A stretch of 64,000 nt of DNA, taken from positions 40,336 through 104,335 of the forward strand of contig JAFXTM010000059.1 in assembly GCA_017535865.1 (NCBI GenBank), read 5' to 3'. Below the pieces are notes generated by a model. The model worked only from the letters and a program-made list of their open reading frames with translations. It searched no databases and was not told the origin of the DNA. Made by a program: the position numbers and the translations under genes. The DNA is from Oscillospiraceae bacterium. GTDB lineage: Bacteria; Bacillota; Clostridia; Oscillospirales; Oscillospiraceae. Shown one piece after another: positions 2,209 to 56,272 of this stretch; the stretch's first letter is position 1; the number at the start of each line of letters is the position of its first letter.

Positions 2209-2220
2209 GCAGCGCCTCCT

Positions 2221-38746: not shown

Positions 38747-38801
38747 AGCTATCATAAATGAACAGATAACGGTTACAGGAAAGAGAAACAAGGGTGATCA
38801 T

Positions 38802-40330: not shown

Positions 40331-41356
40331 ATGAAACGAACCTCAAAACATAACAGGACCCGAGGGCGGTCGATCCTTTTTTTTGTTCTTTTGCTTCTTG
40401 TACTCGCCGTCCTCCTGCTGCTGCGCCTCGGGCAAGAAAGGGTGAAAGCGGCGCCTGAGATATCGCCGTTTTCTTATGCGGTCCCGTCATCGGCGCCGGT
40501 CGGGACGGAGGCGCCGCCGGAAACGACGGTCAACGCTGAGACGGAGAAAGCAGCGTCGGGCACGGAACAGGAGCCGAAACCGGAGCCGGAGCCGAGAAAA
40601 ACGGGCCGGGCCGGAAGCGGCTATAATGCTGCGACGTATCAGCTCGTGAGCGATATGATCTATATCCGCCGCACCGACGCGCCGGACGGCGACGCACAGA
40701 TTCGCGCGCTGGAACAGCAGCTTCGGGAGGCGGACCCGGAACTGGGCGAGGCTTGGACCGGCATCATGGACTACTGGGAATACGCGAACCGGGAGATGCC
40801 GATCAACACCTCTCTTCCCGATGACCTTCCGCAGGACGACAGCCTCTGCCTGGTCGTGCTCGGTTTCCAGCTCCTCTATGATGGAGACATGGCGCCAGAG
40901 CTGCTCGGCCGCTGTGAACTCGCGCTGCAGTGTGCACGGCAGTACCCGAACGCCTATATCGCCGTGACGGGCGGCGGAACGGCAGGCAAGGACAAGAGCA
41001 TTACTGAGGCGGGCGTGATGGCTGACTGGTTTATCGCGCAGGGGATCGCCCCGGAAAGGATCATCCGGGAGGACGCTTCTCTTACGACGGACCAAAATGC
41101 GATCAACACCTGTGCGATCCTGATTCGCGACTATCCGCAGGTCAGACAGCTTGCAATCATTTCGAGCGACTATCATCTTCCGCTCGGCTGTACGATGTTT
41201 ACCGAGGCGGCGCTTCTCTGCGGCTTTTATCTCGGCGAGGTGCCCTATACGGTCGTCTCCAACGCAGCCTGGGCGACGAATGGCAGCACAATTGGTTACA
41301 AAGGAATGAAAAATCAAGCCTCCTATGTCTGGATCATGGCGGATCCGAAATATTGA
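40331..41356 (+). CDS. YdcF/DUF218-family membrane-anchored protein
   Basis: TM anchor, a Pro/Glu-rich linker, then the DUF218 core CLVVLGFQL...GRCELAL...IAVTGGG...EAGVMADW...TDQNA...IISSDYH. Confidence 0.75.
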   Translation: MKRTSKHNRTRGRSILFFVLLLLVLAVLLLLRLGQERVKAAPEISPFSYAVPSSAPVGTEAPPETTVNAETEKAASGTEQEPKPEPEPRKTGRAGSGYNAATYQLVSDMIYIRRTDAPDGDAQIRALEQQLREADPELGEAWTGIMDYWEYANREMPINTSLPDDLPQDDSLCLVVLGFQLLYDGDMAPELLGRCELALQCARQYPNAYIAVTGGGTAGKDKSITEAGVMADWFIAQGIAPERIIREDASLTTDQNAINTCAILIRDYPQVRQLAIISSDYHLPLGCTMFTEAALLCGFYLGEVPYTVVSNAAWATNGSTIGYKGMKNQASYVWIMADPKY

Positions 41357-41526: not shown

Positions 41527-41814
41527 GTCATTAAGTATATAGGTGTTATTATGTCGATTTATTGGTTGTATCACCCTATAGGCGGGAAGTTCTCGCCTGG
41601 CAATATGCCGGAAAGAAGCGTTTTCGGCTCGCCGAATGGAATGAATTTGCATTTCGCTGACGTAATATTCCTATTATATTATTCTATATGCTTTTCTTTT
41701 GAAAGAAAACGCGAAAAGGGCGCTATTGATCCCGCTTGCGGGTTTGATAGATAGATACACGTAAATTTGCAGTGACCAGGGAGCCTGTTCGCTGCAGTAA
41801 TGGAGGCAAAGCTT

Positions 41815-44800
41815 ATGAAACAGATGAAGAAGACACTGTCGCTTCTCCTGGCGCTGGTCATGCTTCTCTCTTTGGGCTCGACGGCTTTGGCCGGCGAGGT
41901 CGAGGAGCAGGTGCCCGTCGTTGTGGAGGAGCAGCAGCCTGTCGTCGTCGAGGAGGCGCCCCCCGTTGTGGAGGAGCCGCCCGTCGTCGAGGAGGCGACC
42001 CCTGTCGTTGAGGAGCAGCCCGTCGTCGAGCCTGTGCCCGTTGAGGAGCCCGCGCCCGTCGTCGAGGAGCCCCCTGTTGTGGTAAACGCGATCGTCAATC
42101 AGCCGGAAGACCTTGCCGTGTGCAACGGTGAGGAGGCTGTCTTCTCCGTCGCGGTTTCTGGCAGTGCGACCTTCCAGTGGCAGTACTGCAAGGACGGCCG
42201 CACATGGAAGAACCTCAACGTCAGCCGCTATGGCAACGGCCCCGAGCTTCACTTTAACGCGGCTCTGTCCTACAACGGCTATCGTTATCGCGCTGTGGTC
42301 ACCTTTGCCGACGGCGAGGTCGTGACGACCAAGGCCGCCGTGCTGAAGGTCGCCGCTGCGAAGATCACGGTCCAGCCGCAGGACGTCACCGTGGCCCCGG
42401 GCGAGAACGCTGTTTTCTCGGTCAAGGCGAGCGGCTCCGTGAAGTCCTACCGCTGGCAGTACTCCAAGGACGGCGGTAACACCTGGACCTATCTGAGCCT
42501 CAAGAACTATCCCGCCAAGAGCACCCTTACCGTGGCCGGCAAGGAGGCCTTCAGCGGCCGCCTGTTCCGGGTGGTCATTACCGCGGCGGATAATTCGAAG
42601 CTGATCTCGAACGCGGTGATGCTCACCGTGGCCGAGCCGACGCCGGAACTGCCGGAAGCTCCTGCACTGGTGGAGATGCCGGCGCGTACGCTGAAAGCGG
42701 CCCCGCGGCGCGGACCTGCCTCTGAGGTCGGCGTTGAGGTCGACGCGCCCGCCGGCGCCCTGCCCGTAGATGCGGAGCTGAGCGTGGCCCCGGTCGATGT
42801 GGCCGAGTGTGAGGAGCTCACCAAGGCTCTCCTGGGCGACGAGATCGAGATCGGCTATGCCGTGGACATCAGCTTCTCCACGCCGGCCGACGGCGAGATT
42901 GAGCCTGTCCAGGGCAATCCCGTCATCGTTTATCTGACGGTGCCCGGCCTGGCTGAGCGCGAGGGTCTCCTTCAGATCGTTCACATCTCCGACTCGGGCA
43001 ACGCCACGCGTATGGCGCTCGTTCCGGAGAGCGAGCTGCCGCGTCCTCTCGGTGAGAACGAGATCGCCATCAAGTCCGATGAGTTCTCCACCTACGTCCT
43101 GACTTGGACCGCCGGAAGCGAAGAGCAGTCCGCCACGATCCACTGGGGCACGTATGATGGGGACGAGTTCACAGAACTGGAGACTCCCACGACGATTGAC
43201 TCCACTGCATCTTCCGTGGATGTCAATGTCATTATTGACGCATCAAAGTATTACTTTGTCGCGGCCGAGTATAAGCTGACTGCGGATGCGGAAGAGTCTG
43301 AGATCCTGAAATCCACTGTCCTCAAGAAGGTGGACGGTGTCTGGCAGGTCACCCTTGAGTCCGGTACGGTTGCTTTGGCAGACGGAAGCCATATCTTCGT
43401 CAACTATGCTGAAATCGGATCGGGTGGCTATGTGCCCCCGTCTCCGCCTCCGCAGGATGTCCTGCCTCCGGAGACCGAAAAGACCGTTACGAGGAATGCG
43501 GATGGCACTTATACCGTTCAGCTGGATATTACCGGTCATGAGGATGAGAACATCACGCAGATCGGCGCCAACGTCGTCATCGTGATGGACATCACGCAGA
43601 GTATGACGAACGGTATGCCCGGCGGCGGTGGTTCACGTATGGCGGCGGCGAAGAGTGCGCTGAGCACGCTGATCACTACCTTGGATCCCGACAAAAACCT
43701 GATCAACTTTACCGCGGTGAACTTCGGCGTTAGCCAGAACGGGGCGACTCTGGCCCGCGACTGGACCACGCAAACATCCCAGATGAATGCATATGTGTCC
43801 GGCCTTCCCAACAATCCGAATGATTATGGCACCAACTGGAGGGCTGGTTTGGAGGGCGGCCAATCGCGTGTTCAGAACGCCAATAGCTCGGCGACGCTTA
43901 GTAAGAACGAGACCTACGTTATTTTCGTGACGGACGGCAACCCGAACTGCTATACAGACGACAGAGGCAGATGGCACCCATCGAGCGGCCCGAACTTTGA
44001 CCAGGGCGCTTATAACGCTTCTGTCAATGCTGCGAACTGGCTTGGTAGTAACAGCCATTTCTACGGTGTGTTCGTTGGTGACGCAGACGGTTATGATCAT
44101 CTGGAGGACCTGATCACCAACGCTCATGGTGTGGAAACCATCAACGGCACCGATACCGAGGAACTTAAAGCGGCCTTCGGCTCAATCGCCCAGACCATCG
44201 TGGACAACCTCGGCGCCGGAAGTGTTGTCGTTGACGACGGTATCCCGACCCTCTCCAATGTCAGTGCTAACGTCTCTGCCGGTGAAGCGGGTGGCTTTGA
44301 GTACTACATCACGCCGAAGAACGGCACACAGACCGAATGGACCGACCATCCCGGCGCAACCTACAGCAACAGCAACGGCGTCACCTGGAACCTGAGCGAG
44401 GCCGGCACCCTGAAGGACGGATGGGTCTATACCCTGAAGTTCAAGGTGTGGCCCAGTCAGGCAGCGTATGACCTGATCGCCGACCTGAACAACGGCCTGG
44501 TGAGTTTTGATGATCTTCCCGAAGAGCAGCAGGCTGCCGTGGAAGGCAACATTAACGACGGCTATACGCTGAAGACCAATACGCATCTGTATACCACCTT
44601 TAAAGATCTGGATGGAAATGAGTATCGGGATGTCTTGGATGCGAAAGCCAAAGCTATGCCGTTGCCCACCACTACCATCAAAGTGGTAAAGTATTGGAAC
44701 AACGATCTGGATGACAAAGAAGCGATTGCAAATGCGTCGATTATTGTTACCAAGGATGGCGACGATTACGAAACCGTAAATCTTGGAAGTGTTACTCAGA

Positions 44801-46410
44801 TCGGTCCCCATAGGTGGAAACAGACGCCCAACGTTGAGATCTATATCTCTATGGGTCAGTTGACGCTGGATACGGAGACGGATGAGATCAACGTCATTTC
44901 TTCCGGACATGACTACTCTGTCAAAGAACCGATCGAATACTCTTACAACTGGTGGCTGACCGCTGACACCTATCATCCCATGCTTGTGAATGGCGAGCCC
45001 ACTGTTCTGATCAAGGTTAGGGATGCGGATTTGGCCAGCGCGCCCAGCTTGAATGACAATGAGCATGTTACAAGCGGAGGCAAGGACTACTATAAGTTCA
45101 ATGGCACTCTTTATGTTGCGCAGGATGCGGACGAGAACCTCCTGGAGGCTACCAACGACCGCCGCAGCAACCTGAACGTGACCAAGGTTGTGACGGGTGA
45201 GAACGCCCCCGCCGATGCATACTTTACTTACAGTATTACTGTTACGGATTTCGAGGGTGAGGATGTCTGGTTCTCTGTTGCCACTGATACGACCGGTGCT
45301 ACTCTTGTAATGGATGAGGGTATCGCTACCGGTGCTACGCGTGAGGTGAAGAACGGTCAGGCAACCGGGTACTGGTACTTCGCCAGCGGCGGGACGGCTA
45401 CCGTCAAGATCAAGGCTGGGCAGAACATCCGTATCATGAACCTTCCCAATGATTCGACATACGAAATCGTAGAGGTTGAGGATTCCATGGAGCCCGGCTG
45501 GGTGTTTACCGAGGCGGAGTCTTCCATCGTTTCGGATTATCAGGCTACGCCCGCATCGATCGATGGTTCTACCGCTTCCGGTACCATTGACATGGCCAAC
45601 ACGAAGTACATCGTGACCTACACCAACGAGTATCTCGGCGTGTTCTATGTGTACCACTCCAGCAACTGCGCCGTGGAGCAGATCCCGATGTCGACAGGTG
45701 GCGTTGCGTACAGCGCGTCCAATCCCTTCAACATCTTTGCCAAGACCTATGAGGGCACGCTCTACGGCGGCTACTACAGCGACTACGCGGGCAAGAGCAG
45801 CGGCTTCGACGCGGCGGCTCTGACGTACACGGACGGTCTTGGCTCCGATGCGGACGGCACGCCTTACAGCCTCGCCTACATCAAGGAAAGCAGCAAGGCT
45901 GCCTGGTCGTCTTCGGCGGCCTACGGTGTGGATGGCACGGCCATAACGCCTGTCAAGGATACGGTCTACTTCCTCAAGGAGGTCCCGACCGCGTACCTGC
46001 AGCCCTACACCTACTTCACCTACTACAAAGCGGCACCCCAAAATATCGCTGCTCTGTGGACGATCTCCGCGCTGGACGACCTGAACTACACCGGCGCTGG
46101 CTTCTACATTCAGAATGTACAGACCGGGACGACCAACGTGGTCTCCTCGCTGAGCATCAAGGCTGCGAACAGCACGACGACGGTCAAGCTGACTGCCAGC
46201 AAGTGCTTCGGTCTCAAACAGGGCATTCTGGACGGCTATCTGAGCTACGTCAAGATCAACGATATGATCGGATCGAAGATCAACATTTGGCAGTACTGGA
46301 CGACCCCGGATGGTATCGAGGTCTGCGGCATTGTTCAGCGTGAGCTTGACACGACCAGCGGAACGAAGGCGAGTGTCGGTTACAACGACACGGCCTATCC
46401 CGGGACCTGA
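41815..46410 (+). CDS. Giant secreted VWA-domain, pilin/Cna-B-like surface protein (1531 aa) lacking an LPXTG sorting signal
   Basis: ATG 41815 lies 8 nt after SD ggagg. Signal peptide (LLALVMLLSLGSTALA), P-V-V-E-E repeats, and two Ig-like modules with the FSV.xSGS...WQYxKDG..W motif. VWA with MIDAS residues (VVIVMDITQSM...GTNW...FVTDGNPN). Pilin-like modules (LNVTKVVTGENAP; LPNDSTYEIVEVED). The C-terminus ...YNDTAYPGT has no LPXTG or hydrophobic tail. Confidence 0.75.
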   Translation: MKQMKKTLSLLLALVMLLSLGSTALAGEVEEQVPVVVEEQQPVVVEEAPPVVEEPPVVEEATPVVEEQPVVEPVPVEEPAPVVEEPPVVVNAIVNQPEDLAVCNGEEAVFSVAVSGSATFQWQYCKDGRTWKNLNVSRYGNGPELHFNAALSYNGYRYRAVVTFADGEVVTTKAAVLKVAAAKITVQPQDVTVAPGENAVFSVKASGSVKSYRWQYSKDGGNTWTYLSLKNYPAKSTLTVAGKEAFSGRLFRVVITAADNSKLISNAVMLTVAEPTPELPEAPALVEMPARTLKAAPRRGPASEVGVEVDAPAGALPVDAELSVAPVDVAECEELTKALLGDEIEIGYAVDISFSTPADGEIEPVQGNPVIVYLTVPGLAEREGLLQIVHISDSGNATRMALVPESELPRPLGENEIAIKSDEFSTYVLTWTAGSEEQSATIHWGTYDGDEFTELETPTTIDSTASSVDVNVIIDASKYYFVAAEYKLTADAEESEILKSTVLKKVDGVWQVTLESGTVALADGSHIFVNYAEIGSGGYVPPSPPPQDVLPPETEKTVTRNADGTYTVQLDITGHEDENITQIGANVVIVMDITQSMTNGMPGGGGSRMAAAKSALSTLITTLDPDKNLINFTAVNFGVSQNGATLARDWTTQTSQMNAYVSGLPNNPNDYGTNWRAGLEGGQSRVQNANSSATLSKNETYVIFVTDGNPNCYTDDRGRWHPSSGPNFDQGAYNASVNAANWLGSNSHFYGVFVGDADGYDHLEDLITNAHGVETINGTDTEELKAAFGSIAQTIVDNLGAGSVVVDDGIPTLSNVSANVSAGEAGGFEYYITPKNGTQTEWTDHPGATYSNSNGVTWNLSEAGTLKDGWVYTLKFKVWPSQAAYDLIADLNNGLVSFDDLPEEQQAAVEGNINDGYTLKTNTHLYTTFKDLDGNEYRDVLDAKAKAMPLPTTTIKVVKYWNNDLDDKEAIANASIIVTKDGDDYETVNLGSVTQIGPHRWKQTPNVEIYISMGQLTLDTETDEINVISSGHDYSVKEPIEYSYNWWLTADTYHPMLVNGEPTVLIKVRDADLASAPSLNDNEHVTSGGKDYYKFNGTLYVAQDADENLLEATNDRRSNLNVTKVVTGENAPADAYFTYSITVTDFEGEDVWFSVATDTTGATLVMDEGIATGATREVKNGQATGYWYFASGGTATVKIKAGQNIRIMNLPNDSTYEIVEVEDSMEPGWVFTEAESSIVSDYQATPASIDGSTASGTIDMANTKYIVTYTNEYLGVFYVYHSSNCAVEQIPMSTGGVAYSASNPFNIFAKTYEGTLYGGYYSDYAGKSSGFDAAALTYTDGLGSDADGTPYSLAYIKESSKAAWSSSAAYGVDGTAITPVKDTVYFLKEVPTAYLQPYTYFTYYKAAPQNIAALWTISALDDLNYTGAGFYIQNVQTGTTNVVSSLSIKAANSTTTVKLTASKCFGLKQGILDGYLSYVKINDMIGSKINIWQYWTTPDGIEVCGIVQRELDTTSGTKASVGYNDTAYPGT
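41896..42082 (+). repeat. Imperfect tandem coding repeat (about 15-18 nt units, gtcgtcgaggag-like) encoding (P)VVVEE(x)P units
   Basis: The translation reads EEQVPVVVEEQQPVVVEEAPPVVEEPPVVEEATPVVEEQPVVEPVPVEEPAPVVEEPPVV. Confidence 0.8.
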
Positions 46411-46426
46411 AAGGAGATGGACGATA

Positions 46427-46714
46427 ATGGCTAAAAAACTGTTTTCCGCGCCTTTCCTCATCCTGAGCGGCTGGGGCGGCGATGGCAGCGACGACGGCGG
46501 CGGCAGCGGCGGCTACACGGACGATCCCTCTGCATGGGATTACAACGAGTGGCTCGAGATCATGGTCGGCGGAGATGACAATGACGGAGACGGGGACATT
46601 GATAAGGGCGACTATATTCTCTGGGCGCTTGCAAATAATATAGATGCCGATACAATCGAGGCTCTGAACCCCGGCTGGGATTCCTATGATCCCACATATT
46701 ATAAAGCAAACTGA
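46427..46714 (+). CDS. 95-aa Gly/Asp-rich acidic protein: N-terminal lasso-leader-like motif plus one EF-hand/dockerin-type Ca2+ loop; candidate precursor/substrate of the downstream cassette
   Basis: SD aaggag lies 10 nt upstream of ATG 46427. Sequence: MAKKLFSAPFLILSGWGGDGSDDGGGSGGYTDD... FSAPFLILSG fits YxxPxLxxxG with F for Y. DNDGDGDIDKGD fits the 12-residue D-x-D-x-D-G-x-I-D-x-x-D loop (46577-46612). Confidence 0.5.
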   Translation: MAKKLFSAPFLILSGWGGDGSDDGGGSGGYTDDPSAWDYNEWLEIMVGGDDNDGDGDIDKGDYILWALANNIDADTIEALNPGWDSYDPTYYKAN

Positions 46715-46731
46715 CCTTGCATCAGATCATT

Positions 46732-46769
46732 AACAGAATAGCGTGGGATTACTCCCACGCTTTTCTGTT
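46732..46769 (+). terminator. Strong hairpin / attenuating terminator between the small acidic protein gene and the kinase gene
   Basis: 17-bp stem with one mismatch, aacagaatagcgtggga-ttac-tcccacgcttttctgtt. The T-rich tract lies within and after the 3' arm. Confidence 0.65.
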
Positions 46770-46780
46770 AGATAAACGTC

Positions 46781-47524
46781 ATGAAAGATTCTGTATTTGA
46801 AATCATGTATGCCGGGCATGCCCTGCGTTATTCTTTCCACGATGTCAACACGCGCTGGGAGTTCCGGTCTCTGGCCCGGCGATCGAGCGCAGAGACCTGG
46901 GATATCCGGGCGACGAAGGAGCAGCTCGAGCGTACGCGCGCCGTGCTCCCGGAGGACTCCCGGGACGCTTTTGTCGAGTTCCGCGCCCTGATCGGTCTGA
47001 CGAGCAGGGAACTGCTGAAATACGATTGCTGTATTTTCCATGGGGTCTCCTTCGTGTGGAAAGGCGCGGCGTTTCTTTTGACCGCGCCGAGCGGCGTCGG
47101 CAAGAGCACGCAGTTCTTCAACTGGCAGCGGCTGTTTCCCGGGGAGATCGCGATGATCTGCGGGGATATGCCCGTGCTCGAGCGCCGGGAGGACGGCAGC
47201 GTCTGGGCGCACCCCAGCCCCTGGAACGGGAAGGAGCGTCTCGGCGACCGCCGCCTCTGCGGCCCCGTGGCCGGGATCGTCCTGCTCGAGCAGGGGAGTG
47301 AGAACAGTATCTCCCCGCTTTCGCCGCACGACGCGATCACGCCCTTTTTCGGGCAGTTTCTGGTGCGCCCGGAAACGGAGGAGGAGATCCGTGCGCTCGC
47401 GCGTCTGATGGATCAGACGCTGCGCAACGTGCCCCTGTATAAGCTCGTGAATCTCGGCGACGACGCCTCGACCGCGCTCCTGCGCGAGACGCTCTCGCCT
47501 CTCGCGGAAGGAGGGAGCCCATGA
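46781..47524 (+). CDS. HPr kinase/phosphorylase C-terminal-domain-like kinase (HprK-related, RiPP/lasso-associated type)
   Basis: FHGVSFVWKGAAFLLTAPSGVGKSTQ matches the HprK P-loop block HG..V...G.GVLI.G.SG.GKS. There is no N-terminal HprK regulatory domain. It is translationally coupled (ATGA) to the PqqD gene. Confidence 0.7.
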   Translation: MKDSVFEIMYAGHALRYSFHDVNTRWEFRSLARRSSAETWDIRATKEQLERTRAVLPEDSRDAFVEFRALIGLTSRELLKYDCCIFHGVSFVWKGAAFLLTAPSGVGKSTQFFNWQRLFPGEIAMICGDMPVLERREDGSVWAHPSPWNGKERLGDRRLCGPVAGIVLLEQGSENSISPLSPHDAITPFFGQFLVRPETEEEIRALARLMDQTLRNVPLYKLVNLGDDASTALLRETLSPLAEGGSP

Positions 47525-47814
47525 CCGTTTATAAAGGCCGTCCCGGCGTCGTTCTGACGGAGATCGCCGGAGAGTACGTTCTCGTCGCGGCGAAGGCGCT
47601 GAAGGGGGAATGCCCCTATGTGATGCAGCTCAACGAGACCTCGGCCTTCCTCTGGCGTCAGCTGGGCTCCGGCATGAGCCTGGAACAGCTCGGGGAAGCC
47701 GTCGCGGAGGAGTACGAGATCGACGACCCCGCAGCGGCCCGCGAGGCGATCGTGGACTTTATCCGGCAGATGGTCGATCTGCATTATCTTGTGACGGAAG
47801 AACTGCCGTCCTGA
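47521..47814 (+). CDS. PqqD-family peptide chaperone (RiPP recognition element)
   Basis: 97 aa: ...EYVLVA...VMQLNETSAFLWRQLGSGMSLEQLGEAVAEEYEIDDPAAAREAIVDFIRQMVDLHYL follows the PqqD/RRE winged-helix pattern. Confidence 0.75.
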   Translation: MTVYKGRPGVVLTEIAGEYVLVAAKALKGECPYVMQLNETSAFLWRQLGSGMSLEQLGEAVAEEYEIDDPAAAREAIVDFIRQMVDLHYLVTEELPS

Positions 47815-47875
47815 GCGAAGGCACAGACGTCTTTTGTTCGGCAGACACTGTATGGATCAGAAACAGGAGGAGACT

Positions 47876-48193
47876 ATGTCAAAGAATAAGAAGAAAAAGA
47901 AGAGCGCGGGCGGCGCGGTGATCGTGCTTATCCTGCTCGTGTTGATGCTGGCTGCGCTGCTGGCTGTCAAGTTTTTCGGGATCGGTTCCCCGGCGCCAGC
48001 CGAGGTGACTGCCGCTCCCACCGAAACGCCTGTGGAGGAGACCGCGGTACCCGAGGCGTTGGAAGCGCCCGTCGTCGTGGAGAGCACCCCGGCTCCCACG
48101 CCGATGCAGCCCGGCGATGTGCCGGAGCTCCTCGAGGATGAGGGCGAGATCGAGATCATCATTCCGGACGATATGGAGGGCGAAGGCTTCTGA
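47876..48193 (+). CDS. Small single-pass membrane protein with a poly-Lys N-terminus and an acidic Pro/Glu/Val-rich ectodomain
   Basis: ATG 47876 lies 6 nt after SD aggagga. Sequence: MSKNKKKKKSAGGAVIVLILLVLMLAALLAV...EAPVVVESTPAP...EDEGEIEIIIPDDMEGEGF. Its stop overlaps the next start (TGATG). Confidence 0.5.
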   Translation: MSKNKKKKKSAGGAVIVLILLVLMLAALLAVKFFGIGSPAPAEVTAAPTETPVEETAVPEALEAPVVVESTPAPTPMQPGDVPELLEDEGEIEIIIPDDMEGEGF

Positions 48194-49395
48194 TGCCGGA
48201 GTCGAACGAAACCCGGGCGCTCTTTCTGGATCTGCTGCGCTGCGCGGTGCACGGAGAGAGCTTCGACGGACCGCTCTCTCGTGAGGCCGCGCCTGCTGTG
48301 GCCCGCCTGGCCCGGGAGCACAGCGTGCTCCCCCTGCTCGTTGAAGCGGGGGGAGCGCCTCTGCACGGCTATGCGGCCCACGCCAGGAGACTTACGATCT
48401 CTCAGGCGGGGCGCACAGCCGATTTTCTGCTGCTCTATGCCTTTCTGAATGAGCGTGGCCTGTACCCCGCCGTGATGAAGGGAATCGTGCTGCGCAGCCT
48501 CTATCCGCATCCGGAGCAGCGCGCCTCGACCGACGAGGATCTGCTGGTCCGTTCGGAGGAGTTTCCCCTCTACCACCGCGCCCTGCTGGATTACGGCCTC
48601 GCCCCGGTGAACCCGGATACAGATCTGGGGTCGAGCGATGAGGTCTCCTACGTGGACAAGTCCCGCGGCCTGTACATCGAGGTGCACAAGAACGCCTTCC
48701 CGCCCGACTCCGACATCTACAGGGACCTGGACGCGCTCTTTGCCGGCGCGCTGGACCGCTGCACGACGGTGACGGTCTACGGTCAGCCGATCACGACCCT
48801 CGTGCCGACCGACCATCTGCTTTATCTGCTCTGCCACGCCTTCAAGCACTTCCTGCTCAGTGGTGTCGGCATCCGCCAGGTCTGTGACGTCGGGATGTTC
48901 GCGGAGCGTTATGCGGGCGAGATCGACTGGGCCGCGGTCCGTGAGCGCTGCGAGAGCGTGAGGATCGCGCGGTACAGCGCCGCGCTCTTCCGCATCGCGG
49001 AGCGGCGTCTCGGCTTTGCCATGCCCCCGGCCTTCGCGGATCTGGAGGTCGACGAGAGCGACATGCTCGCGGATATCCTCACGGGCGGCCTCTACGGCAC
49101 AAGCGACGTCAATCGTGCGCACAGCAGCAGGATTACGCGGGACGCCGTCACAGCGCAGAAGCAGCAGCGCCGCAGATCCGGCGCACTTGCCGCGCTGTTC
49201 CCTCCATTTTCCAGCATGTGCTCCAGATTTCCATATCTGTGTCGCTTCCCCTGGTTGCTGCCTGTTGCCTGGGTGCAGCGTGTGTGGAACTATCTGTTTC
49301 GCCGTCGCCACCGTGCCCGGGCTAATCCCGCCGAGAGCGTACGGATCGGCAGGGAGCGCGTTCAACTCCTGCGGGAGTACGGGATCATCGATTAG
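48193..49395 (+). CDS. Uncharacterised nucleotidyltransferase family protein (PF14907 / NTP_transf_5-like)
   Basis: 400 aa. VMKGIVLRSLYPHPEQRASTDEDLLV (G-x-x...D-x-D Pol-beta-like NTase core) followed by ...IEVHKNAF... matches the family seen next to HprK-like and PqqD genes. Confidence 0.68.
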   Translation: MPESNETRALFLDLLRCAVHGESFDGPLSREAAPAVARLAREHSVLPLLVEAGGAPLHGYAAHARRLTISQAGRTADFLLLYAFLNERGLYPAVMKGIVLRSLYPHPEQRASTDEDLLVRSEEFPLYHRALLDYGLAPVNPDTDLGSSDEVSYVDKSRGLYIEVHKNAFPPDSDIYRDLDALFAGALDRCTTVTVYGQPITTLVPTDHLLYLLCHAFKHFLLSGVGIRQVCDVGMFAERYAGEIDWAAVRERCESVRIARYSAALFRIAERRLGFAMPPAFADLEVDESDMLADILTGGLYGTSDVNRAHSSRITRDAVTAQKQQRRRSGALAALFPPFSSMCSRFPYLCRFPWLLPVAWVQRVWNYLFRRRHRARANPAESVRIGRERVQLLREYGIID

Positions 49396-49508
49396 TACCA
49401 GGAAGAAGAAAAATCAAACCACAGCCTTATTCGTTGTAATCATCGAAACAAGCGAAATATGTCGAAACGAGCGGAGGGATTGTTCCATCCGGATATAGGG
49501 TAGTTTCA

Positions 49509-49546
49509 ACAGGAAACCATGAAAAACGTGGTTTCCTGTTTTTCTT
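49509..49546 (+). terminator. Rho-independent terminator ending the kinase-PqqD-NTase cassette
   Basis: 11-bp stem acaggaaacca/tggtttcctgt followed by ttttctt. Confidence 0.8.
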
Positions 49547-49606
49547 GATACCACCCAAAACTCAGCTGCATGTGACAAGGATTCGAAAAACAAAAAGAAA
49601 TTCTGC

Positions 49607-49635
49607 TTGATTAAAACAATAAACTGAGGTATAAT
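49607..49635 (+). promoter_or_regulatory. Sigma-A-type promoter of the ABC-exporter / EPS operon
   Basis: TTGATT (49607-49612), 17 nt, TATAAT (49630-49635), in an AT-rich 330-nt intergenic region. Confidence 0.5.
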
Positions 49636-49731
49636 ATTAAAAGTAGTTTTATGCCGTGTGGGTAACAAAAGGCTACAAATAAGCAACATAAAATGACAAC
49701 GAATTGACATAATCTACTGCGAGGCTGAAGA

Positions 49732-51516
49732 ATGGATAAAGAGACAAACGGAAACAAAGCATTCTTTAACTCGGTGCACACGCTTCGCATGCGTATTAAG
49801 GACGGGACCTTTAAGGAGATCCTGGACGACTGGAGATGGATCTTTTCCTACAGCAAGCGCTACAAGGGAGCGATTGCATTTTACGTCTTTCTGGGGATAT
49901 TCAGCACCTCGCTCGGTCTCGTGGCAAGCGTGGCCAGCAAATACATGATCGATATCATCACCGGGTATCAACGGGAAAAGCTGGGAATATTCATCGCGCT
50001 GACGTTGGGCAGCGCTGCTTTCAGCCTGACTTTCTCCAATCTGATCAAACGGATTACGAAAAAACTGAGCATCGATATCAACAACGACATCCAGGCGGAT
50101 ATTTTCGACCAGATCATCGACGTCGACTGGAAGGCGATCAACAAGTATTCCAACGGCGATATCCTCAACCGCTTCAATAACGACGTCGGCACGGTCAGCA
50201 GCAACGCGATCAGCTGGCTGCCCTCCATCATCATTTCGATCTACAATTTTATTGTCACCTTCCTGCTTATCTGGCATTACAACAAGGTGATGTCGCTCCT
50301 GGCTTTTGCCAGCGCGCCGATCATGCTGCTCATGTCCAAGTACCTGATCACCAAGCAGCGTGAGTACTCGAAAAAGGTTCGTGAGACCAGCAGCGAGATG
50401 ATGAGCTTTGAAGTGGAGACCTTCTATAATTTCGACGCCATCAAGTCCTTCGGCATCATGAAGACCTACGGGGTCAAGCTGCGGGACTTGCAGCAGAAGT
50501 TCAAGAAGATCAGCCTGGAACACAATATGTTCACGATCAAGACCGGCGTGTTCATGTCGATCCTCGGGATGATCATTCAATACACCGCTTTTGGCTATTG
50601 CCTCTATCTGTTGTGGAGCACCCAGATCACCTACGGTACGATGACGCTCTTTCTCGAGCAACGCGGCCGTCTGGCCAACGCCTTTAACAGCGTGATTGGC
50701 ATCATTCCCAGCTTCCTGACGAGTTCGGTTTCCGCCCACCGTATCCGCGAACTGATCGAACTGCCCAGAGAAAAGCACATCCCCGAGAGCGAGGCTCTGC
50801 GCGCGCTCGCACGGGACGGATTCGAGGTCCGTTTCCAGGACGTGGACTTTTCGTATTCGGAAGACCAACGGGTCATCAGCGATTCGGATTTCCGCGCGTC
50901 TCCGGGTGAGATAGTGGCGCTGGTCGGGCCCTCCGGCGAGGGCAAGACCACGATGATCCGCCTGATCCTCGGACTGATCTATCCCGAGCAGGGGAACGCG
51001 TTTCTTGTTGCCTCGGACGGCAGCCGCGTCGAGATGAACGCGGACAGCCGCTTCCTTTTCTCTTATGTTCCGCAGGGCAACGCAATCCTGGCCGGTACCG
51101 TCGCAGAGAACCTGCGCATGGTGAAAGAGGACGCAACGGACGCCGAGATCGAAGAAGCACTGAAAATCGCCTGCGCCTGGGACTTTGTCTCCCGGCTGCC
51201 GGAAGGGATTAACAGCAAGGTTGGCGAGCGCGGCCGTGGCTTTTCTGAGGGGCAGGCACAGCGTATTGCCATTGCCCGCGCAGTGCTGCGCGATGCTCCC
51301 ATCATGCTGCTGGATGAGGCGACCTCCGCGCTGGACGTCACCACCGAGCGGCAGGTCCTGCGCAACATCATTCGTCAGCGACCTAACAAGACCTGCATCG
51401 TGACGACACACCGGCCTACGGTGCTGAATATGTGCCAGCGTGTCTACCGGGTGATGAATACCCGTGTGACCGAACTGAGCGAGGAAGAATCCGGCCACAT
51501 GGTGATGGATTTCTGA
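49732..51516 (+). CDS. ABC exporter, fused TMD-NBD half-transporter (MsbA/McjD-like)
   Basis: 594 aa: six-TM ABC_membrane domain, then GPSGEGKTT, FSEGQAQRIAIARA, MLLDEATSALD. No C39 peptidase domain. Confidence 0.85.
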   Translation: MDKETNGNKAFFNSVHTLRMRIKDGTFKEILDDWRWIFSYSKRYKGAIAFYVFLGIFSTSLGLVASVASKYMIDIITGYQREKLGIFIALTLGSAAFSLTFSNLIKRITKKLSIDINNDIQADIFDQIIDVDWKAINKYSNGDILNRFNNDVGTVSSNAISWLPSIIISIYNFIVTFLLIWHYNKVMSLLAFASAPIMLLMSKYLITKQREYSKKVRETSSEMMSFEVETFYNFDAIKSFGIMKTYGVKLRDLQQKFKKISLEHNMFTIKTGVFMSILGMIIQYTAFGYCLYLLWSTQITYGTMTLFLEQRGRLANAFNSVIGIIPSFLTSSVSAHRIRELIELPREKHIPESEALRALARDGFEVRFQDVDFSYSEDQRVISDSDFRASPGEIVALVGPSGEGKTTMIRLILGLIYPEQGNAFLVASDGSRVEMNADSRFLFSYVPQGNAILAGTVAENLRMVKEDATDAEIEEALKIACAWDFVSRLPEGINSKVGERGRGFSEGQAQRIAIARAVLRDAPIMLLDEATSALDVTTERQVLRNIIRQRPNKTCIVTTHRPTVLNMCQRVYRVMNTRVTELSEEESGHMVMDF

Positions 51517-51537
51517 GGCCCGAAGGGGGATTCGCCC

Positions 51538-52287
51538 ATGATCGATCTGCATACACATGTTCTCCCTGGCATAGACGACGGCTCGACCGACATGGATATG
51601 TCGATGGAAATGCTGTTTATTGCGGCGGAAAGCGGCGTTGAGACGCTTGTCACCACACCGCACTGCAACATCCCCGGCGAGTTTGACAACTATGCCGACA
51701 AAGAAATGGAGCTCCTCTGGAACGGGCTCGAACAGGAGAGAGAACGCGCGGGTATTCCGATCCGACTCTGCCGGGGTATGGAAATCTTTGCTACGCCTGA
51801 CCTTCCGGAACTTCTGAGCGAAGAGAGAGTATGGACGCTGAACGGTACAAACTATTTTCTGACGGAGTTTGCTTTCGATGAGGACCCGGAATACTGCTGG
51901 CGTATCCTGGAAGAATGTGAGAGTCAGGGCTTTCGGCCAATCATTGCACACCCCGAACGGTACTTTTTTCTTCAGGATGATTTGCAGATCGCGTACGAAT
52001 GGTGTACCGCCGGTTATGGCTTGCAGCTGAACAAGGGCAGCCCGCTCGGCCGCTTCGGCCCCGAGGTGCAGCAAACGGCCATTGAGCTCCTGAATCACGG
52101 ATTGATCGCCTGTGTGGCGAGCGATGCGCACTATCCCCATCGGCGCAGCACGTATATGGGGGAGATTCGCCGCTTCCTGGAGGAGACTTACGGAGAAGAC
52201 TGCCTGTACCTCCTTCTGGAGGAAAACCCCGCACGTATCCTGCGGGGAGACAATTTGCTGGGAGTTGAACCGATCCCGTTTCTATAA
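51538..52287 (+). CDS. PHP-family protein-tyrosine phosphatase (CpsB/YwqE type)
   Basis: MIDLHTHVLPGIDDGS...TPH...AHPERY...ASDAH motifs. Confidence 0.85.
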   Translation: MIDLHTHVLPGIDDGSTDMDMSMEMLFIAAESGVETLVTTPHCNIPGEFDNYADKEMELLWNGLEQERERAGIPIRLCRGMEIFATPDLPELLSEERVWTLNGTNYFLTEFAFDEDPEYCWRILEECESQGFRPIIAHPERYFFLQDDLQIAYEWCTAGYGLQLNKGSPLGRFGPEVQQTAIELLNHGLIACVASDAHYPHRRSTYMGEIRRFLEETYGEDCLYLLLEENPARILRGDNLLGVEPIPFL

Positions 52288-52310
52288 AGAAAAGATAGAG
52301 GAAGTTGAGT

Positions 52311-53183
52311 ATGAGACGATTGAGGATATTCATTGTTCTGTTTTCCTTGTCGGTTTTTGCCGTCTATGCGATTAACAGCATACAGGAGAGAATGACCTCG
52401 GACTATGTGCCCCCGGTCATTCATGCGGAGTACGATGCGATCCAGTCGAGCGTTGCCGTTACGGATCAGGAACTGCTGACCGGCATGACAGCTTCCGACA
52501 ATCTCGATGGAGACGTTTCGGATTCGCTGGTCGTTGTTTCCAAGTCGAAGTTTATCTTCCGCGGGATGCGCCGCATCAAGTATGCGGCCTTCGACAAGAA
52601 CAACAATGTAGGCGTATATGAGCGCATGCTGACGTATACGGACTATGTGTCCCCGCATTTTTCACTCAGTCAGCCGCTCCGTTTTGTCGACGGAAACTCC
52701 GATGTTGATTATCTGAAAAACGTTTCAGCTTATGATTGCCTCGACGGGGATATCTCCAAGCAGATCATGATTACCTATGGGGAAAACCGGAGGATCAGCG
52801 ATACGACCAAGAGCCAGACGATCAATCTGCAGGTTACGAACAGCGCCGGAGATACGGCGACGCTTCAGCTTGAGGCGTTGCGGCAGGATTACACCTCCTA
52901 CAACCAGTATGCGCCTTCGCTGAGCGAGTATCTGGTATATACCGGCATCGGACAGCCGCTGACTCTTTCGTCCTATGTGAACGGGGTCTGGACGGGAAAC
53001 ACGGTCCGTACCTTCGCCGACACCGGCTATGATCCCAACACGGATGTGAGTATTGACTCCAGTTCCGTCAATTATAACGCACCGGGCGTTTATCCCGTCC
53101 CGTTCCAGCTTAGCCGCCTGAAAAATGACGGCGTGCGGGAATATCTGGGGACCAATACGCTTTTTGTGGTTGTGGAGGGTTGA
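52311..53183 (+). CDS. Membrane-anchored protein with Ig-like (DUF5011-like) extracellular domains; function unknown
   Basis: TM anchor, then repeated ...D.LDGD(V/I)S... motifs typical of bacterial Ig-like/DUF5011 modules. ATG 52311 lies 6 nt after SD agaggaag. Confidence 0.45.
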   Translation: MRRLRIFIVLFSLSVFAVYAINSIQERMTSDYVPPVIHAEYDAIQSSVAVTDQELLTGMTASDNLDGDVSDSLVVVSKSKFIFRGMRRIKYAAFDKNNNVGVYERMLTYTDYVSPHFSLSQPLRFVDGNSDVDYLKNVSAYDCLDGDISKQIMITYGENRRISDTTKSQTINLQVTNSAGDTATLQLEALRQDYTSYNQYAPSLSEYLVYTGIGQPLTLSSYVNGVWTGNTVRTFADTGYDPNTDVSIDSSSVNYNAPGVYPVPFQLSRLKNDGVREYLGTNTLFVVVEG

Positions 53184-53184
53184 A

Positions 53185-54834
53185 ATGAACGAAGATAGAG
53201 AATTCACCTCCCCCTTGGATCGTGTCGACCTATACAGCATGCTCCGGGACGTGCTGCGCAATCTGTGGGCAATCGTGATCGGAGCGCTGGCTGTTGCGCT
53301 GATCGTCAATATGTCGGTCAAGTCGGATTTCCAGAAGACCTATTCAACCAAAACGACTTTTGTTGTGACCTCCCGCACATCGAGCAACTACACCTACAGC
53401 AATCTGAACGCGGCATCCTCAATGGCCACCAGCTTCTCCAACATCCTCAACAGCCGCCTGCTCCAGAAAAAAGTCTGCCAGGATCTGGGCCTTGAGAGCT
53501 TCAACGCAAAGACGAGCGCCAACGTCATCAAGGGCACAAATCTGATGACGCTTCAGGTGACGTCGGATACGCCGCGAAACGCCTATATGATCATTCGCTC
53601 GATCATGAACAACATCGGCGACCTCACGCCTTACGTCTCGTCGGATATGGTGATGGAAGTCCTGCAGGAACCGAGTGTTCCGACGGGCGCGGACGCCTCT
53701 TTTTCGGCCGCCCGTCAGACAAAAAAAGCGTTTATGGGCGTCGCCGCCGCGCTGGTCCTGGTTTTCATGTATCTCTCGTATCAGAAGGAGACCATCAAGA
53801 GCGATAAAGATCTGGAGGACAAGCTGGACGCGCGCTGCCTCGGCGTGGTGTACCATGACAGCCTGTATCCATCCCTGCGTGCGTTCGTGCAGGGAAAGAA
53901 GAACAGGCATCTTGTTACGGATCTGACAGCGAAGTTCGAGTATGTCGAGCGCTTCAAGAAGATCGGCGCAAACGTATCCAGCAACGCGCGCCGCCGGGAG
54001 GCGCGGATCATTGCGGTCACGAGCGTGCGCGAGCATGAGGGCAAGTCCACGGTAGCCGCCAATCTTGCGCTTTCCCTGTCCCAGCAGTCCTATAAGGTCC
54101 TGCTGATCGACGGCGATCTCCGCCGCCCTACGCTTCAGACTCTGTTCCTTCGAAAGAAGGACCGCCTGCCGGCGGCACTGGGAGATCTGCTGGCCGGGAA
54201 AGCAACGATGATGGATGCCCTCTGGTATGACAAACGACGGAACATCTATCTTCTCCTCAATAAAAAGAACTATTCGAACTCCACGGATATTGTCTCTTCT
54301 CCCAGCATGAACCAGCTTTTGACGTCTTCTGCCGAGCATTTCGATTACATCGTGATCGACACGCCGCCCATGTCTCTCATGGCGGACGCCGAGGCCCTGG
54401 TCGACCAGTCGGATCTGAGTGTGCTCGTTGTCAAGTATGACACCGTTCTGGCCCCGGATCTGAACGATGCGATCGACTCGCTCCGCGACTGCCACGCCTT
54501 TTTTGCCGGATGCGTTTTGAATGAAGTACGGGCGCTGCCCGGAGCCCGTCGTGCGGTCGGCGGCTATGGCGGCTATGGGCGTTACCGGTACAGCCGTCGT
54601 TACGGCGAATACAGCACGTACGGGAAATACGGCGGCAGCAGCGCTTCGTCAGGCGAAAGGTCTTCGAGCCGGAGTGGGACCCACACATCAAGCCGAAGCG
54701 GAACGTCCGGTCGTTCACGAACAGGCGCATCTTACGCTCCCAGGAAAAGCAGTACCGTGGGTACGGTGAAAAAAGAATCCGCCAAGGCGGGTAAGAGCGA
54801 GGCTCCCACCGGCTCAGGCGAAGTGAAAAAGTGA
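53185..54834 (+). CDS. Fused Wzz-like modulator / BY-tyrosine kinase (copy 1) with Tyr cluster and Ser/Arg/Gly-rich tail
   Basis: Two TM helices flanking a Wzz-like loop. Kinase core VTSVREHEGKSTVAANLA, LLIDGDLRRP, YIVIDTPP. Y-cluster GGYGGYGRYRYSRRYGEYSTYGKYGG, then about 70 aa of S/R/G-rich tail. Confidence 0.85.
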   Translation: MNEDREFTSPLDRVDLYSMLRDVLRNLWAIVIGALAVALIVNMSVKSDFQKTYSTKTTFVVTSRTSSNYTYSNLNAASSMATSFSNILNSRLLQKKVCQDLGLESFNAKTSANVIKGTNLMTLQVTSDTPRNAYMIIRSIMNNIGDLTPYVSSDMVMEVLQEPSVPTGADASFSAARQTKKAFMGVAAALVLVFMYLSYQKETIKSDKDLEDKLDARCLGVVYHDSLYPSLRAFVQGKKNRHLVTDLTAKFEYVERFKKIGANVSSNARRREARIIAVTSVREHEGKSTVAANLALSLSQQSYKVLLIDGDLRRPTLQTLFLRKKDRLPAALGDLLAGKATMMDALWYDKRRNIYLLLNKKNYSNSTDIVSSPSMNQLLTSSAEHFDYIVIDTPPMSLMADAEALVDQSDLSVLVVKYDTVLAPDLNDAIDSLRDCHAFFAGCVLNEVRALPGARRAVGGYGGYGRYRYSRRYGEYSTYGKYGGSSASSGERSSSRSGTHTSSRSGTSGRSRTGASYAPRKSSTVGTVKKESAKAGKSEAPTGSGEVKK

Positions 54835-54841: not shown

Positions 54842-56272
54842 ATGAACGAAAATCTTTCAAGTCATTCCGAAGAGCTGGAAAAGATCAATATCATCTCGTT
54901 CCTGAACGATCTTCTGCACCGTCTGCGGAGCTTCTGGTGGGTGATTCTTCTGCTCACGGTTGCATTTGGCGCGGCATCCTACTATCGAACCAGCACGCAT
55001 TACAGCCCCTCCTACACGGCGGAAGCGACCGTTTCCGTTGAGATCGTGAACGGTGGCTCTAACGCCAACCGCAACACGGCCGAACAGTTGGGCGTCATCT
55101 TCCCGTATATTCTGACCAGCGGTGCCCTGTCGGATGTTATTGCTGCGGATCTGGGACTGAGCAACGTTCCGGGGTCTATTCAGGTAAGCTGTATCAGCGG
55201 TACAAACCTTTTGACGATTACTGTGACCGGCTCCAACCCCAATAATGTCTATGCGGTGCTCCAGTCCATGCTCAAGAATTATCCGGAAGTCGCACAGTTT
55301 GTCGTTGGGCAGACCATGCTCACCGTTATCGATGACAGCGGCATTCCCGAGGATACGGGACGCACCTCCGTTCTGCGCGGCTCTCTGACCAGAGGCGCGG
55401 TGGTGGGCTTCCTGCTTGGCGCTGTCCTGCTGATGGTCTACACCGTGACGACCCGAACGATCCGTGATGAAGAGGATCTCCGCACGTTCCTCAATGTTCC
55501 CTGCTTGGGCACGCTTCCCTCGTATAAAAAGAAACGCCGGAAAAAGAATGTCAATACCGAGATCAACATTCTCAACGACCGGAATGGCAGCAACAGCGAT
55601 TACATTGAAAGTATGCGCCTGATTCGTACCCGTCTTGAGCGCCAGCTCGGGGACAAGCAGGTGCTGATGGTCACAAGCTCGATCCCTGGGGAAGGAAAAT
55701 CCACGGTCGCGGCTAATCTGGCGATCTCCATGGCCCGAAAAGGAAAGAGCGTTATCCTGATCGACTGCGATCTTCGAAATCCAACGCAGGGGAAAGTTTT
55801 TGGACTCAAAGGAAAGTATCCCGGTCTTGTACCTGTTCTGCAGGGTAAGGCCAAATTGGAAGACGCGCTGTATGAGGTTACCGATCACGGCGAGCCGATC
55901 GGCCTGACGCTTCTTCCGGGGGCCGACCATGAATCCAAGCTTGTCGAAATCCTCGGCAGCGAGGAGATGAGAGAACTGCTGGAGAAGCTCAAAAAGCGTG
56001 TGGACGTGGTCATCCTCGATTCACCGCCTTCCGCCATGCTGGTCGACGCGATGATCATGGTTCAGCACGTGGACGGCGTGGTATATGTGGTCATGAGCGA
56101 CTTTGCAAAGCGCAGCTTTATCTTCCGCGGCATGGATGAGTTGACGTCAAACGGCGTCGAAGTACTCGGCTGCATCCTCAACGGCGGAAAAACCCGTTCA
56201 AAAGGTTACGGGTATTACGGTTCAAAAGGGTACGGATATTATAGTACAGGTACAAAAGCAAAAAGCGAATAA
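54842..56272 (+). CDS. Fused Wzz-like modulator / BY-tyrosine kinase (copy 2)
   Basis: Same architecture as copy 1: VTSSIPGEGKSTVAANLA, ILIDCDLRNP, VVILDSPP; C-terminal Y-cluster KGYGYYGSKGYGYYS. Confidence 0.85.
   Translation: MNENLSSHSEELEKINIISFLNDLLHRLRSFWWVILLLTVAFGAASYYRTSTHYSPSYTAEATVSVEIVNGGSNANRNTAEQLGVIFPYILTSGALSDVIAADLGLSNVPGSIQVSCISGTNLLTITVTGSNPNNVYAVLQSMLKNYPEVAQFVVGQTMLTVIDDSGIPEDTGRTSVLRGSLTRGAVVGFLLGAVLLMVYTVTTRTIRDEEDLRTFLNVPCLGTLPSYKKKRRKKNVNTEINILNDRNGSNSDYIESMRLIRTRLERQLGDKQVLMVTSSIPGEGKSTVAANLAISMARKGKSVILIDCDLRNPTQGKVFGLKGKYPGLVPVLQGKAKLEDALYEVTDHGEPIGLTLLPGADHESKLVEILGSEEMRELLEKLKKRVDVVILDSPPSAMLVDAMIMVQHVDGVVYVVMSDFAKRSFIFRGMDELTSNGVEVLGCILNGGKTRSKGYGYYGSKGYGYYSTGTKAKSE

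Follow-up and report, generated by a model that had tools for sequence, protein, structure and literature searches.

We report that a 64,000-nt stretch of DNA from Oscillospiraceae bacterium (GCA_017535865.1, JAFXTM010000059.1; referred to here as the window, with all positions given in window numbering) carries a compact gene cassette encoding a small acidic protein of 95 aa, a P-loop kinase-like protein, a PqqD-type recognition element of the kind that binds the leaders of ribosomally synthesised and post-translationally modified peptides (RiPP recognition element, RRE), a single-pass membrane protein and a nucleotidyltransferase (NTase)-fold enzyme. By analogy with characterised clusters, we regard it as reasonably probable that this is a maturation system of the type which Popov et al. 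(Nat Commun 2026, May; PMC13381572) described for the linear polyphosphorylated peptides (LPP) of Bacilli capsule loci, that a dedicated leader peptidase was either lost from it or never present, and that its substrate is the 95-aa protein, co-transcribed with a giant adhesin. We draw this reading from the presence of what look like the same four enzyme types as are found in LPP clusters, taken together with the conservation of a leader-type motif and candidate modification site in the small protein, the synteny of the genes in related genomes, and the missing cyclase and peptidase. The chemistry we propose, phosphorylation and further decoration of the small protein, is likewise suggested by analogy.

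Two characterised systems provide the terms of this comparison. In LPP clusters such as lppA-K-B-S-D-N of Paenibacillus alginolyticus, the precursors are 35-200 aa long and start with YxxPxVLxHQxIxFETxxS, within which [Y/W]xxPx[L/V/I/F/A] is the RRE-binding sub-motif, and LppK polyphosphorylates the core Ser3 which lies 15 residues past the motif Pro (PMC13381572). The psmC-A-K-B1-B2-N-D cluster of Bacillus pseudomycoides makes a lasso peptide, with PsmK phosphorylating the C-terminal Ser and PsmN needed for the addition of a hexose to the phosphate (PMC6993621).

The features of the cassette and its surroundings are listed here with the basis of each assignment in brackets:

41800..46410, + strand: giant secreted adhesin, 1536 aa (Pfam domains and sequence)
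46427..46714, + strand: precursor-like small acidic protein, 95 aa (homologue family and motif)
46736..46765, + strand: conserved 13-bp hairpin and T-run, terminator or attenuator (scan call and covariation)
46781..47524, + strand: ScmC-type P-loop protein, putative Ser/Thr kinase, 247 aa (PF27840 and fold match)
47521..47814, + strand: discrete PqqD-type RRE, 97 aa (PF05402)
47876..48193, + strand: single-pass membrane 'tether' protein, 105 aa (transmembrane (TM) helix and synteny)
48193..49395, + strand: NTP_transf_5 NTase-fold enzyme, 400 aa (PF14907)
49508..49540, + strand: intrinsic terminator after the four-gene block (terminator scan)
49607-49635: promoter-like site before the ATP-binding cassette (ABC) exporter gene (promoter scan)
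49732..51516, + strand: MsbA-like ABC exporter, first gene of the exopolysaccharide (EPS) operon (Pfam and NCBIfam)
51538-52287: CpsB, directly after the ABC exporter gene

Reading of the sequence confirmed five open reading frames (ORFs) of 95, 247, 97, 105 and 400 aa, and the gene overlaps, P-loop, DED motif and hairpin described in a first-pass annotation of the same DNA were all present as claimed (the kinase-like and PqqD genes share ATGA, and the tether stop and NTase start share TGATG). That annotation had also described the last four genes as tightly packed and lacking intergenic promoters, and the promoter scan found no promoter-like site within the block. It had placed the cassette between a giant adhesin gene and an EPS locus, which agrees with an adhesin gene at 41800-46410 and an ABC/CpsB operon running from 49732. 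The 95-aa ORF is preceded by a Shine-Dalgarno sequence (AAAGGAG) and starts 16 nt after the adhesin stop, and given this spacing the two genes most likely share a transcript. At the other end of the cassette, the terminator at 49508-49540 and the promoter-like site both sit in an AT-rich spacer of 336 nt between the NTase and ABC genes.

A word-indexed search identified 49 homologues of the 95-aa protein, and a search of 1.84 billion proteins recovered about 190 cluster representatives that match over their full length; nearly all are 75-120 aa long and align from residue 1. These ~190 full-length representatives, and the occurrence of the ORF at the same position in every evaluable related locus, indicate that it represents a genuine conserved gene family, beyond chance. 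The leader-type motif F6-x-x-P9-x-L11 is encoded at 46442-46459, and the candidate site Ser27 (46505-46507) sits in a Gly-rich disordered linker ahead of a C-terminal domain which is helical and contains a DxDxDG loop. When conservation was computed across 191 sequences, Pro9 was conserved in 98% and I/V/L two residues later in 97%, while position 27 was Ser or Thr in 98% (68% Ser and 31% Thr); the other conserved positions are Trp42 (97%), Asp62 (92%), Tyr63 (90%) and Trp66 (98%). The FxxPxL motif which the first-pass annotation had picked out is therefore a family feature, with [FYW]xxPx[ILVMFA] found in 155/190 members (the aromatic residue being Phe in 141, Trp in nine and Tyr in five) and a family consensus of MxKKxFxxPxIxx...GxG[ST].... 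The distance from the motif Pro to the Ser/Thr ranges from 15 to 25 residues with a median of 19, a spacing comparable to that at which LppK modifies its substrate, and the median net charge is -11.

An AF2 (AlphaFold2) model of the 95-aa protein had a predicted local distance difference test (pLDDT) score of <50 for residues 1-33, which are predicted to be disordered, and of 70-90 for most of residues 34-95, where four short helices (H39-47, 60-69, 74-80 and 89-94) include a helix-loop-helix around the DxDxDG loop. The protein had no significant match in Pfam, in PDB sequences or in a Foldseek fold search, and the label 'EF-hand/dockerin-like' might be applied to it with the DxDxDG pattern and the predicted helix-loop-helix as its sole basis. 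Two other readings of the N-terminus were considered and rejected: a Sec signal peptide, as the best 19-residue hydropathy is 0.55, and a double-glycine leader, as a C39 peptidase domain is missing from the ABC transporter.

The kinase-like protein contains the P-loop APSGVGKST and is assigned to PF27840 (ScmC) in precomputed Pfam data. Its sole NCBIfam match was to TIGR04249 (ScmC; E 3.8e-4, 19.9 bits against a cut-off of 125), and PF07475 (HprK_C) matched neither this protein nor 19 homologues when E-values up to 10 were allowed; a family-profile search of PDB sequences produced noise with no HprK match. Residues P103, G107, K108, D129 and K151-E152 are invariant across 447 homologues. In a Foldseek search with the AF2 model (pLDDT 93.5), the best 15 matches were all L. 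casei HprK/P (E 3e-7 to 1.5e-5, TM-score by target 0.41-0.52), followed by PEPCK. The description of this product in the first-pass annotation as an HprK C-terminal-domain kinase thus held for the fold and failed for the family: the model places its P-loop in a fold of the HprK/PEPCK type, its Walker A is invariant, and it stands outside the HprK Pfam family. We regard it as a putative Ser/Thr kinase and, by analogy, as the counterpart of LppK and PsmK.

The other two enzymatic assignments made earlier, a PqqD-type RRE and an NTP_transf_5 nucleotidyltransferase, were borne out by profile searches. The PqqD protein matches PF05402 (E 7e-13), the NCBIfam models nearest to it are lasso PqqD chaperones, and its matches among PDB sequences were limited to lasso and LPP recognition elements, namely TbiB1, LppB (9x8z; E 0.022), PbaB1 (9x90) and TfuB1. 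The NTase matches PF14907 (E 4e-40, 138.5 bits against a gathering cut-off of 31.2), with the DED motif formed by D114-E115-D116 and residues K96, G97, S112, D114, D116, E163 and H165 conserved in at least 95% of 27 homologues, and by analogy it would be the counterpart of PsmN and LppN.

We scanned 185,579 species genomes with the kinase-family alignment and obtained 26 loci from rumen and gut metagenome-assembled genomes of Oscillospiraceae, Lachnospiraceae, Christensenella, Erysipelotrichaceae and others. It should be noted that synteny was assessed by tblastn and precomputed gene calls, and that greedy ORF clustering sometimes took antisense ORFs in GC-rich loci. The order ScmC-PqqD-(small membrane protein)-NTase was found directly downstream of a giant adhesin in every locus, and an ORF of ~90 aa lay between the adhesin and kinase genes in all loci not cut by a contig end. 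This bears on the question raised in the first-pass annotation of whether a small motif-bearing protein always lies upstream, a small ORF having been present at this position wherever a related locus could be evaluated. Three loci (L005, L006 and L023) have two cassettes each, and L010 has a second adhesin and small-ORF pair without a cassette of its own. Three further contigs (L030, L032 and L033), reached via distant small-ORF homologues, have the whole block in synteny, and no peptidase, signal peptidase or cyclase was found among their precomputed Pfam calls. We also note a divergent Erysipelotrichaceae locus, L029, in which a 62-aa ORF (9481-9669) with a Tyr-type YKKPTL motif and ending in ..GGGGF is followed by ScmC-like and PqqD genes and then by CpsB instead of the NTase.

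An ABC exporter, always paired with CpsB, lies near the unit in at least 16 loci with 60-80% identity, its side and orientation varying, and this indicates that it belongs to the conserved gene set. It has ABC_membrane and ABC_tran domains, is a half-transporter with no peptidase domain, and has TIGR02204 and TIGR02203 as its top NCBIfam matches. We consider it the candidate exporter and, by analogy, the counterpart of LppD and PsmD.

The enzymes that define lasso clusters were sought in a Pfam scan of virtually every window ORF of 150 aa or more and an NCBIfam scan of the seven cassette-region proteins (46427-52287). Neither an Asn_synthase-like macrolactam cyclase nor a transglutaminase-like B2 protease (Transglut_core3 or related) was found by Pfam among these window ORFs, in agreement with the absence of a lasso cyclase and leader protease reported from the first-pass annotation, and no signal peptidase (SpI/SipW-type, TIGR02228) was found among the Pfam-scanned ORFs or the seven NCBIfam-scanned proteins. 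Nor did a cyclase, B2 protease or signal peptidase emerge as a conserved neighbour across more than 30 related loci; for the cyclase and B2 families this covers 10 kb on each side of the cassette in the 26 genome loci and the three further contigs, and the sole conserved neighbour of ~600 aa in the related loci is the ABC transporter. The proposal which had been made at the outset, of a stand-alone, RRE-guided phospho- or nucleotidyl-transfer system acting on a small acidic protein and not a lasso pathway, is consistent with all of the computational tests run.

The 105-aa product is the only one in the cassette with a TM segment and the enzymes are cytoplasmic. As noted in the first-pass annotation, it is a single-pass protein: a poly-Lys N-terminus is followed by one TM helix, a Pro/Thr-rich acidic stretch and a conserved extreme C-terminus (..EDEGEIEIIIPDDMEGEGF). 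It had no match in Pfam or NCBIfam. An equivalent gene lies between the PqqD and NTase genes in 20 of 21 loci, being missing only in L015, and in this family the N-terminus is basic, the linker is variable (~30-150 aa) and the C-terminal motif is conserved (IxE/DxGxIxIxIPxxxxSGGL/F). The hydrophobic segment is closely followed by a Cys in roughly half of the homologues, several of which show a lipobox-like context, and this Cys together with the positive-inside rule suggests that the C-terminus is outside the cell. These features suggest a membrane tether, and we refer to the protein as a putative tether.

The adhesin has a Sec signal peptide and Ig, VWA, DUF7604 and DUF7601 domains recognised by Pfam, with no LPXTG motif or C-terminal TM segment and no recognisable anchor. 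Its last ~230 aa form a conserved module (with LYGGYY, YYxKEVPxxYLxPYxHYTY and YWxTPDG) which is common to 22 loci with differing passenger regions, these including VWA, Flg_new and MucBP domains, and which had no Pfam match in the window (45640-46410) or in L004-L027. The distance from the adhesin stop to the small-ORF start is 8-35 nt in 22/22 loci. Just upstream of the window adhesin lie genes for a TIR-domain protein (38709-40145; CAP12/Pycsar-effector-type TIR) and a DUF218 protein (40331-41356), and this pair also precedes the adhesin in L003.

The small ORF is followed by a hairpin, AGCGTGGGATTACTCCCACGCT, and then a T-run, at 46740-46761, which was called as a terminator by the scan and has a GC-rich stem of 9 bp; its core can be written as AGCGTGGG-ATTAC-TCCCACGCT (46740-46761). 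The motif AGCGYGG..CCRCGCT occurs once in the 64 kb against an expectation of 0.02, and each related locus has a single copy in the equivalent place, except L010, where there are two, one after each small ORF. In the 13-bp helix 94% of cells are paired and nine of the 13 pairs have compensatory changes, a result equalled in 0/500 shuffles. The G-U pairs make sense on the + strand only, which indicates that the hairpin is an RNA element. A search of Rfam returned no family at threshold, the sub-threshold matches being chance ones only. The primary sequence of the hairpin is kept across bacterial families (GAATAGCGTGGGG / AGCGCGGAG variants with compensatory changes), where the small proteins are only ~20-40% identical (L005-L031). 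This conservation indicates that the hairpin is not merely a generic terminator and, as it exceeds what a terminator needs, possibly reflects a role in recognition by a protein or RNase.

Taken together, these observations suggest the following sequence of events. The 95-aa protein would be made in the cytoplasm without a signal peptide, and the PqqD RRE would bind its N-terminal F6xxP9xL11 as an added beta-strand. This binding would recruit the ScmC/HprK-fold kinase, which would phosphorylate Ser27, perhaps several times, some 18 residues downstream in the flexible Gly-rich linker, and the PF14907 enzyme would then add a group to the phosphate, which by analogy with PsmN would be a hexose. 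The product would stay linear and possibly uncleaved, and would probably be exported by the adjacent MsbA-like ABC transporter to the cell surface, where it would act together with the adhesin, the tether and the capsule. The hairpin after the precursor gene would uncouple precursor expression from that of the enzymes.

A number of points weigh against an LPP-type system with the small protein as substrate. The binding of the RRE to the leader is a prediction. The kinase-like protein scores far below every curated cut-off (19.9 against 125 bits for TIGR04249) and has no PF07475 match. The aromatic residue of the motif is mostly Phe in the window family and not the Tyr or Trp of LPP precursors. 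LppK is inactive on an S3T variant (PMC13381572), while 31% of the small-protein family has Thr at the candidate site, and LppN was without activity in a heterologous host (PMC13381572), so that the chemistry proposed for the NTase here is tentative. The ABC gene lies behind a terminator with its own promoter-like site, is always found with CpsB, and may serve the polysaccharide pathway. Finally, the arrangement of the genes indicates that the small ORF shares an operon with the adhesin and is separate from the enzymes. Between the hairpin and the kinase gene, a perfect 12/12 sigma-70 promoter, TTGACA-16-TATAAT, is present in three loci (L008 9963-9990, L022 9957-9984 and L027 7478-7505), which indicates that there are two operons in these loci, one with the adhesin and small ORF and one with the enzymes. 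No such promoter is present in the window, which has only 20 nt after the hairpin, and the enzymes there are therefore probably expressed through read-through or from a weak site within the small ORF.

We considered four other explanations, all of which fit the evidence less well than the LPP-type reading. The giant adhesin could itself be the true substrate, in line with the surface protein which the first-pass annotation had named as an alternative, with the RRE binding a motif in the C-terminal module and modification taking place before or during export, and with the small protein acting as a chaperone- or adaptor-like accessory. The same ~230-aa module precedes the cassette in every locus despite the differing passengers, the adhesin has no recognisable anchor, and YLxPY[L/T/M/F]HYTY within the module fits [Y/W]xxPx[L/..] in a minority of cases (7/22 loci). 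YLxPY, however, lies inside an E-box-like beta-domain motif (YYxKEVPxxYLxPY) and is probably structural, it is missing or without the Pro in several loci, and the adhesin has a Sec signal peptide whereas all of the enzymes are cytoplasmic; the small protein, on the other hand, bears its motif at a free and disordered N-terminus like the known precursors. We think a modified adhesin improbable. The tether has also to be considered as a substrate or co-substrate which might be phosphorylated near its conserved C-terminus, as in paeninodin-type lasso peptides, given that its gene is within the enzyme block and translationally coupled to that of the NTase, that the C-terminal motif often has a Ser at -4 (..SGGL), and that lasso kinases act on a C-terminal Ser (PMC6993621). 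This Ser is absent from the window protein (..MEGEGF) and several homologues, there is no aromatic-xxP motif, the C-terminus is placed outside the cell by the positive-inside rule and post-TM Cys, and the gene is missing in L015, and we judge this explanation to be very improbable.

The two remaining explanations look to the neighbouring genes for the function of the cassette. The uncharacterised HPr-rel-A systems (TIGR04352/TIGR04353/TIGR04355), which occur mainly in Proteobacteria, bring together beside EPS genes a P-loop protein related to HprK, a member of the PqqD family and an enzyme of PF14907. The cassette could be a Gram-positive counterpart of these, acting on a glycan or lipid-linked intermediate in capsule or EPS production, with the PqqD protein as a scaffold and the small ORF unrelated. 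The invariable synteny of the ABC-CpsB-Wzz/CpsD-Bac_transf-HpcH locus with the cassette would suit such a role, as would the use of the NTase fold in nucleotide-sugar chemistry and the inactivity of LppN without further host factors (PMC13381572). Against this, the homologous kinases LppK and PsmK phosphorylate peptides (PMC13381572, PMC6993621), the RRE-binding motif and Ser/Thr are conserved on the adjacent small protein, and neither the kinase-like nor the PqqD protein was matched by an HPr-rel-A model at E ≤ 0.01; we therefore hold a polysaccharide substrate to be decidedly improbable. It would be close to untenable to regard the cassette as part of an ordinary tailored lasso cluster with its cyclase and B2 protease outside the window, as there is no Asn_synthase or transglutaminase match in the tested ORFs across the 64 kb, neither family is conserved in the 10 kb flanking the cassette on each side in the 26 loci and three contigs, and the putative precursor of ~94 aa has a conserved folded domain, even though K-B1-N-D genes and a leader motif are typical of paeninodin-type clusters and more than half of the LPP-carrying Bacilli also have lasso genes (PMC13381572).

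If the LPP-type reading is kept, the neighbourhood raises a further idea which we put forward tentatively and consider rather unlikely. The small phosphoprotein, the tether with its conserved C-terminal strand and the C-terminal module of the adhesin might together constitute an unrecognised, sortase-independent means of mounting giant adhesins in Gram-positive rumen bacteria. LPP-type phospho(glycosyl) modification would take place in the cytoplasm and be followed by ABC export, after which the modification would link or dock the adhesin to the tether and/or the capsule. If true, adhesin mounting would be the first biological role for LPP and paeninodin-type phosphorylation. 

Under the LPP-type reading itself, a variant without the family-defining enzyme would mean that the kinase/RRE/NTase module can act on a small protein and not a cleaved peptide. 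In several families of rumen Firmicutes the genes of the module are each linked with those for giant adhesins, a tether and a capsule operon, which provides a testable hypothesis for the role of this phosphorylation chemistry in cell-surface or adhesin biology, and this is a branch which genome mining anchored on SpI, the cyclase or B2 misses.

In the rest of the window, the Pfam scan identified housekeeping and sporulation genes upstream of the adhesin region, and a Wzy-type capsule locus downstream with CpsB, two Wzz-CpsD fusions, Bac_transf, EpsG and glycosyltransferases. CpsB is followed by a 292-aa protein (52305-53183) which has only a sub-threshold Bact_surface_Ig-like match (E 1.2e-4) and is conserved in at least nine related loci, and after this come the tandem Wzz-CpsD fusion genes (53125-54834 and 54842-56272). 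Among the upstream genes, polC is split by an in-frame TAG (25182-25184) into ORFs 23004-25184 and 25191-26999 in the same frame (..PPEIV*KRVDVEL..), for which an assembly error, a genuine nonsense mutation and recoding are all conceivable explanations. We also note a large protein with CotH kinase, lamin-tail and Fn3-associated domains (27003-29390), which has no relation to the cassette, and a 634-aa ORF with no Pfam match (1738-3642).

Comparison of the cassette with known systems shows partial likeness to several. As in SynChlorMet, the kinase-like protein has ScmC (TIGR04249) as its best NCBIfam match and the PqqD protein weakly matches ScmD (TIGR04248), but the scores are far under the cut-offs (19.9 against 125 bits for ScmC and 16.4 against 100 for ScmD), and no SynChlorMet radical-SAM partners were found in the window. 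The gene order A-K-B-x-N-D seen here parallels psm C-A-K-B1-B2-N-D, and the cassette resembles the paeninodin and pseudomycoidin clusters in having a PF14907-type enzyme and a putative kinase where the psm precursor is phosphorylated by its kinase. It differs from these in having neither the cyclase (C) nor the B2 protease, in having an internal candidate site rather than a C-terminal Ser, and in having a substrate of ~95 aa with a folded domain.

The closest likeness is to the LPP clusters, and the window components match lppA-K-B-S-D-N with the exception of SpI. Both have a discrete PqqD RRE, an enzyme of the NTP_transf_5 family, an MsbA-like exporter and no macrolactam cyclase, and the kinase-like protein of the window may be of the ScmC/HprK-rel type found there; the putative precursor of the window, like those of LPP clusters, has an aromatic-xxP-x-aliphatic motif near its N-terminus (here mostly with Phe) and, 15-25 residues further on, a residue with a hydroxyl group; and both are embedded in capsular polysaccharide loci, with the 95 aa of the window protein falling within the LPP range of 35-200 aa. 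LPP kinases are listed in the domain table of that paper under TIGR04249 (67), TIGR04352 (65) and Hpr_kinase_C (1), the type to which the window protein also seems to belong, and on the role of LPP the authors note co-localisation with capsule loci (PMC13381572). In contrast to LPP clusters, the SpI/SipW-like leader peptidase which defines them is absent here and its slot is occupied by the 105-aa non-enzymatic membrane or lipoprotein tether, and in the window the ABC gene forms a separate transcription unit. The window family has no HQxIxFET and so departs from the full YxxPxVLxHQxIxFETxxS consensus, the candidate site is Ser or Thr, and the C-terminus is conserved, helical and acidic where that of LPP precursors is hypervariable. 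The precursor gene in the window family shares an operon with a giant adhesin gene, the hairpin after it is conserved in sequence, and the family is found in rumen and gut Clostridia and Erysipelotrichia, where LPP clusters are found in Bacilli. A cyclase-less cassette has thus been known since LPP were described (May 2026, PMC13381572), and what is new here is the missing peptidase, the tether in the peptidase slot, the precursor with a folded domain, the coupling to an adhesin and the conserved hairpin.

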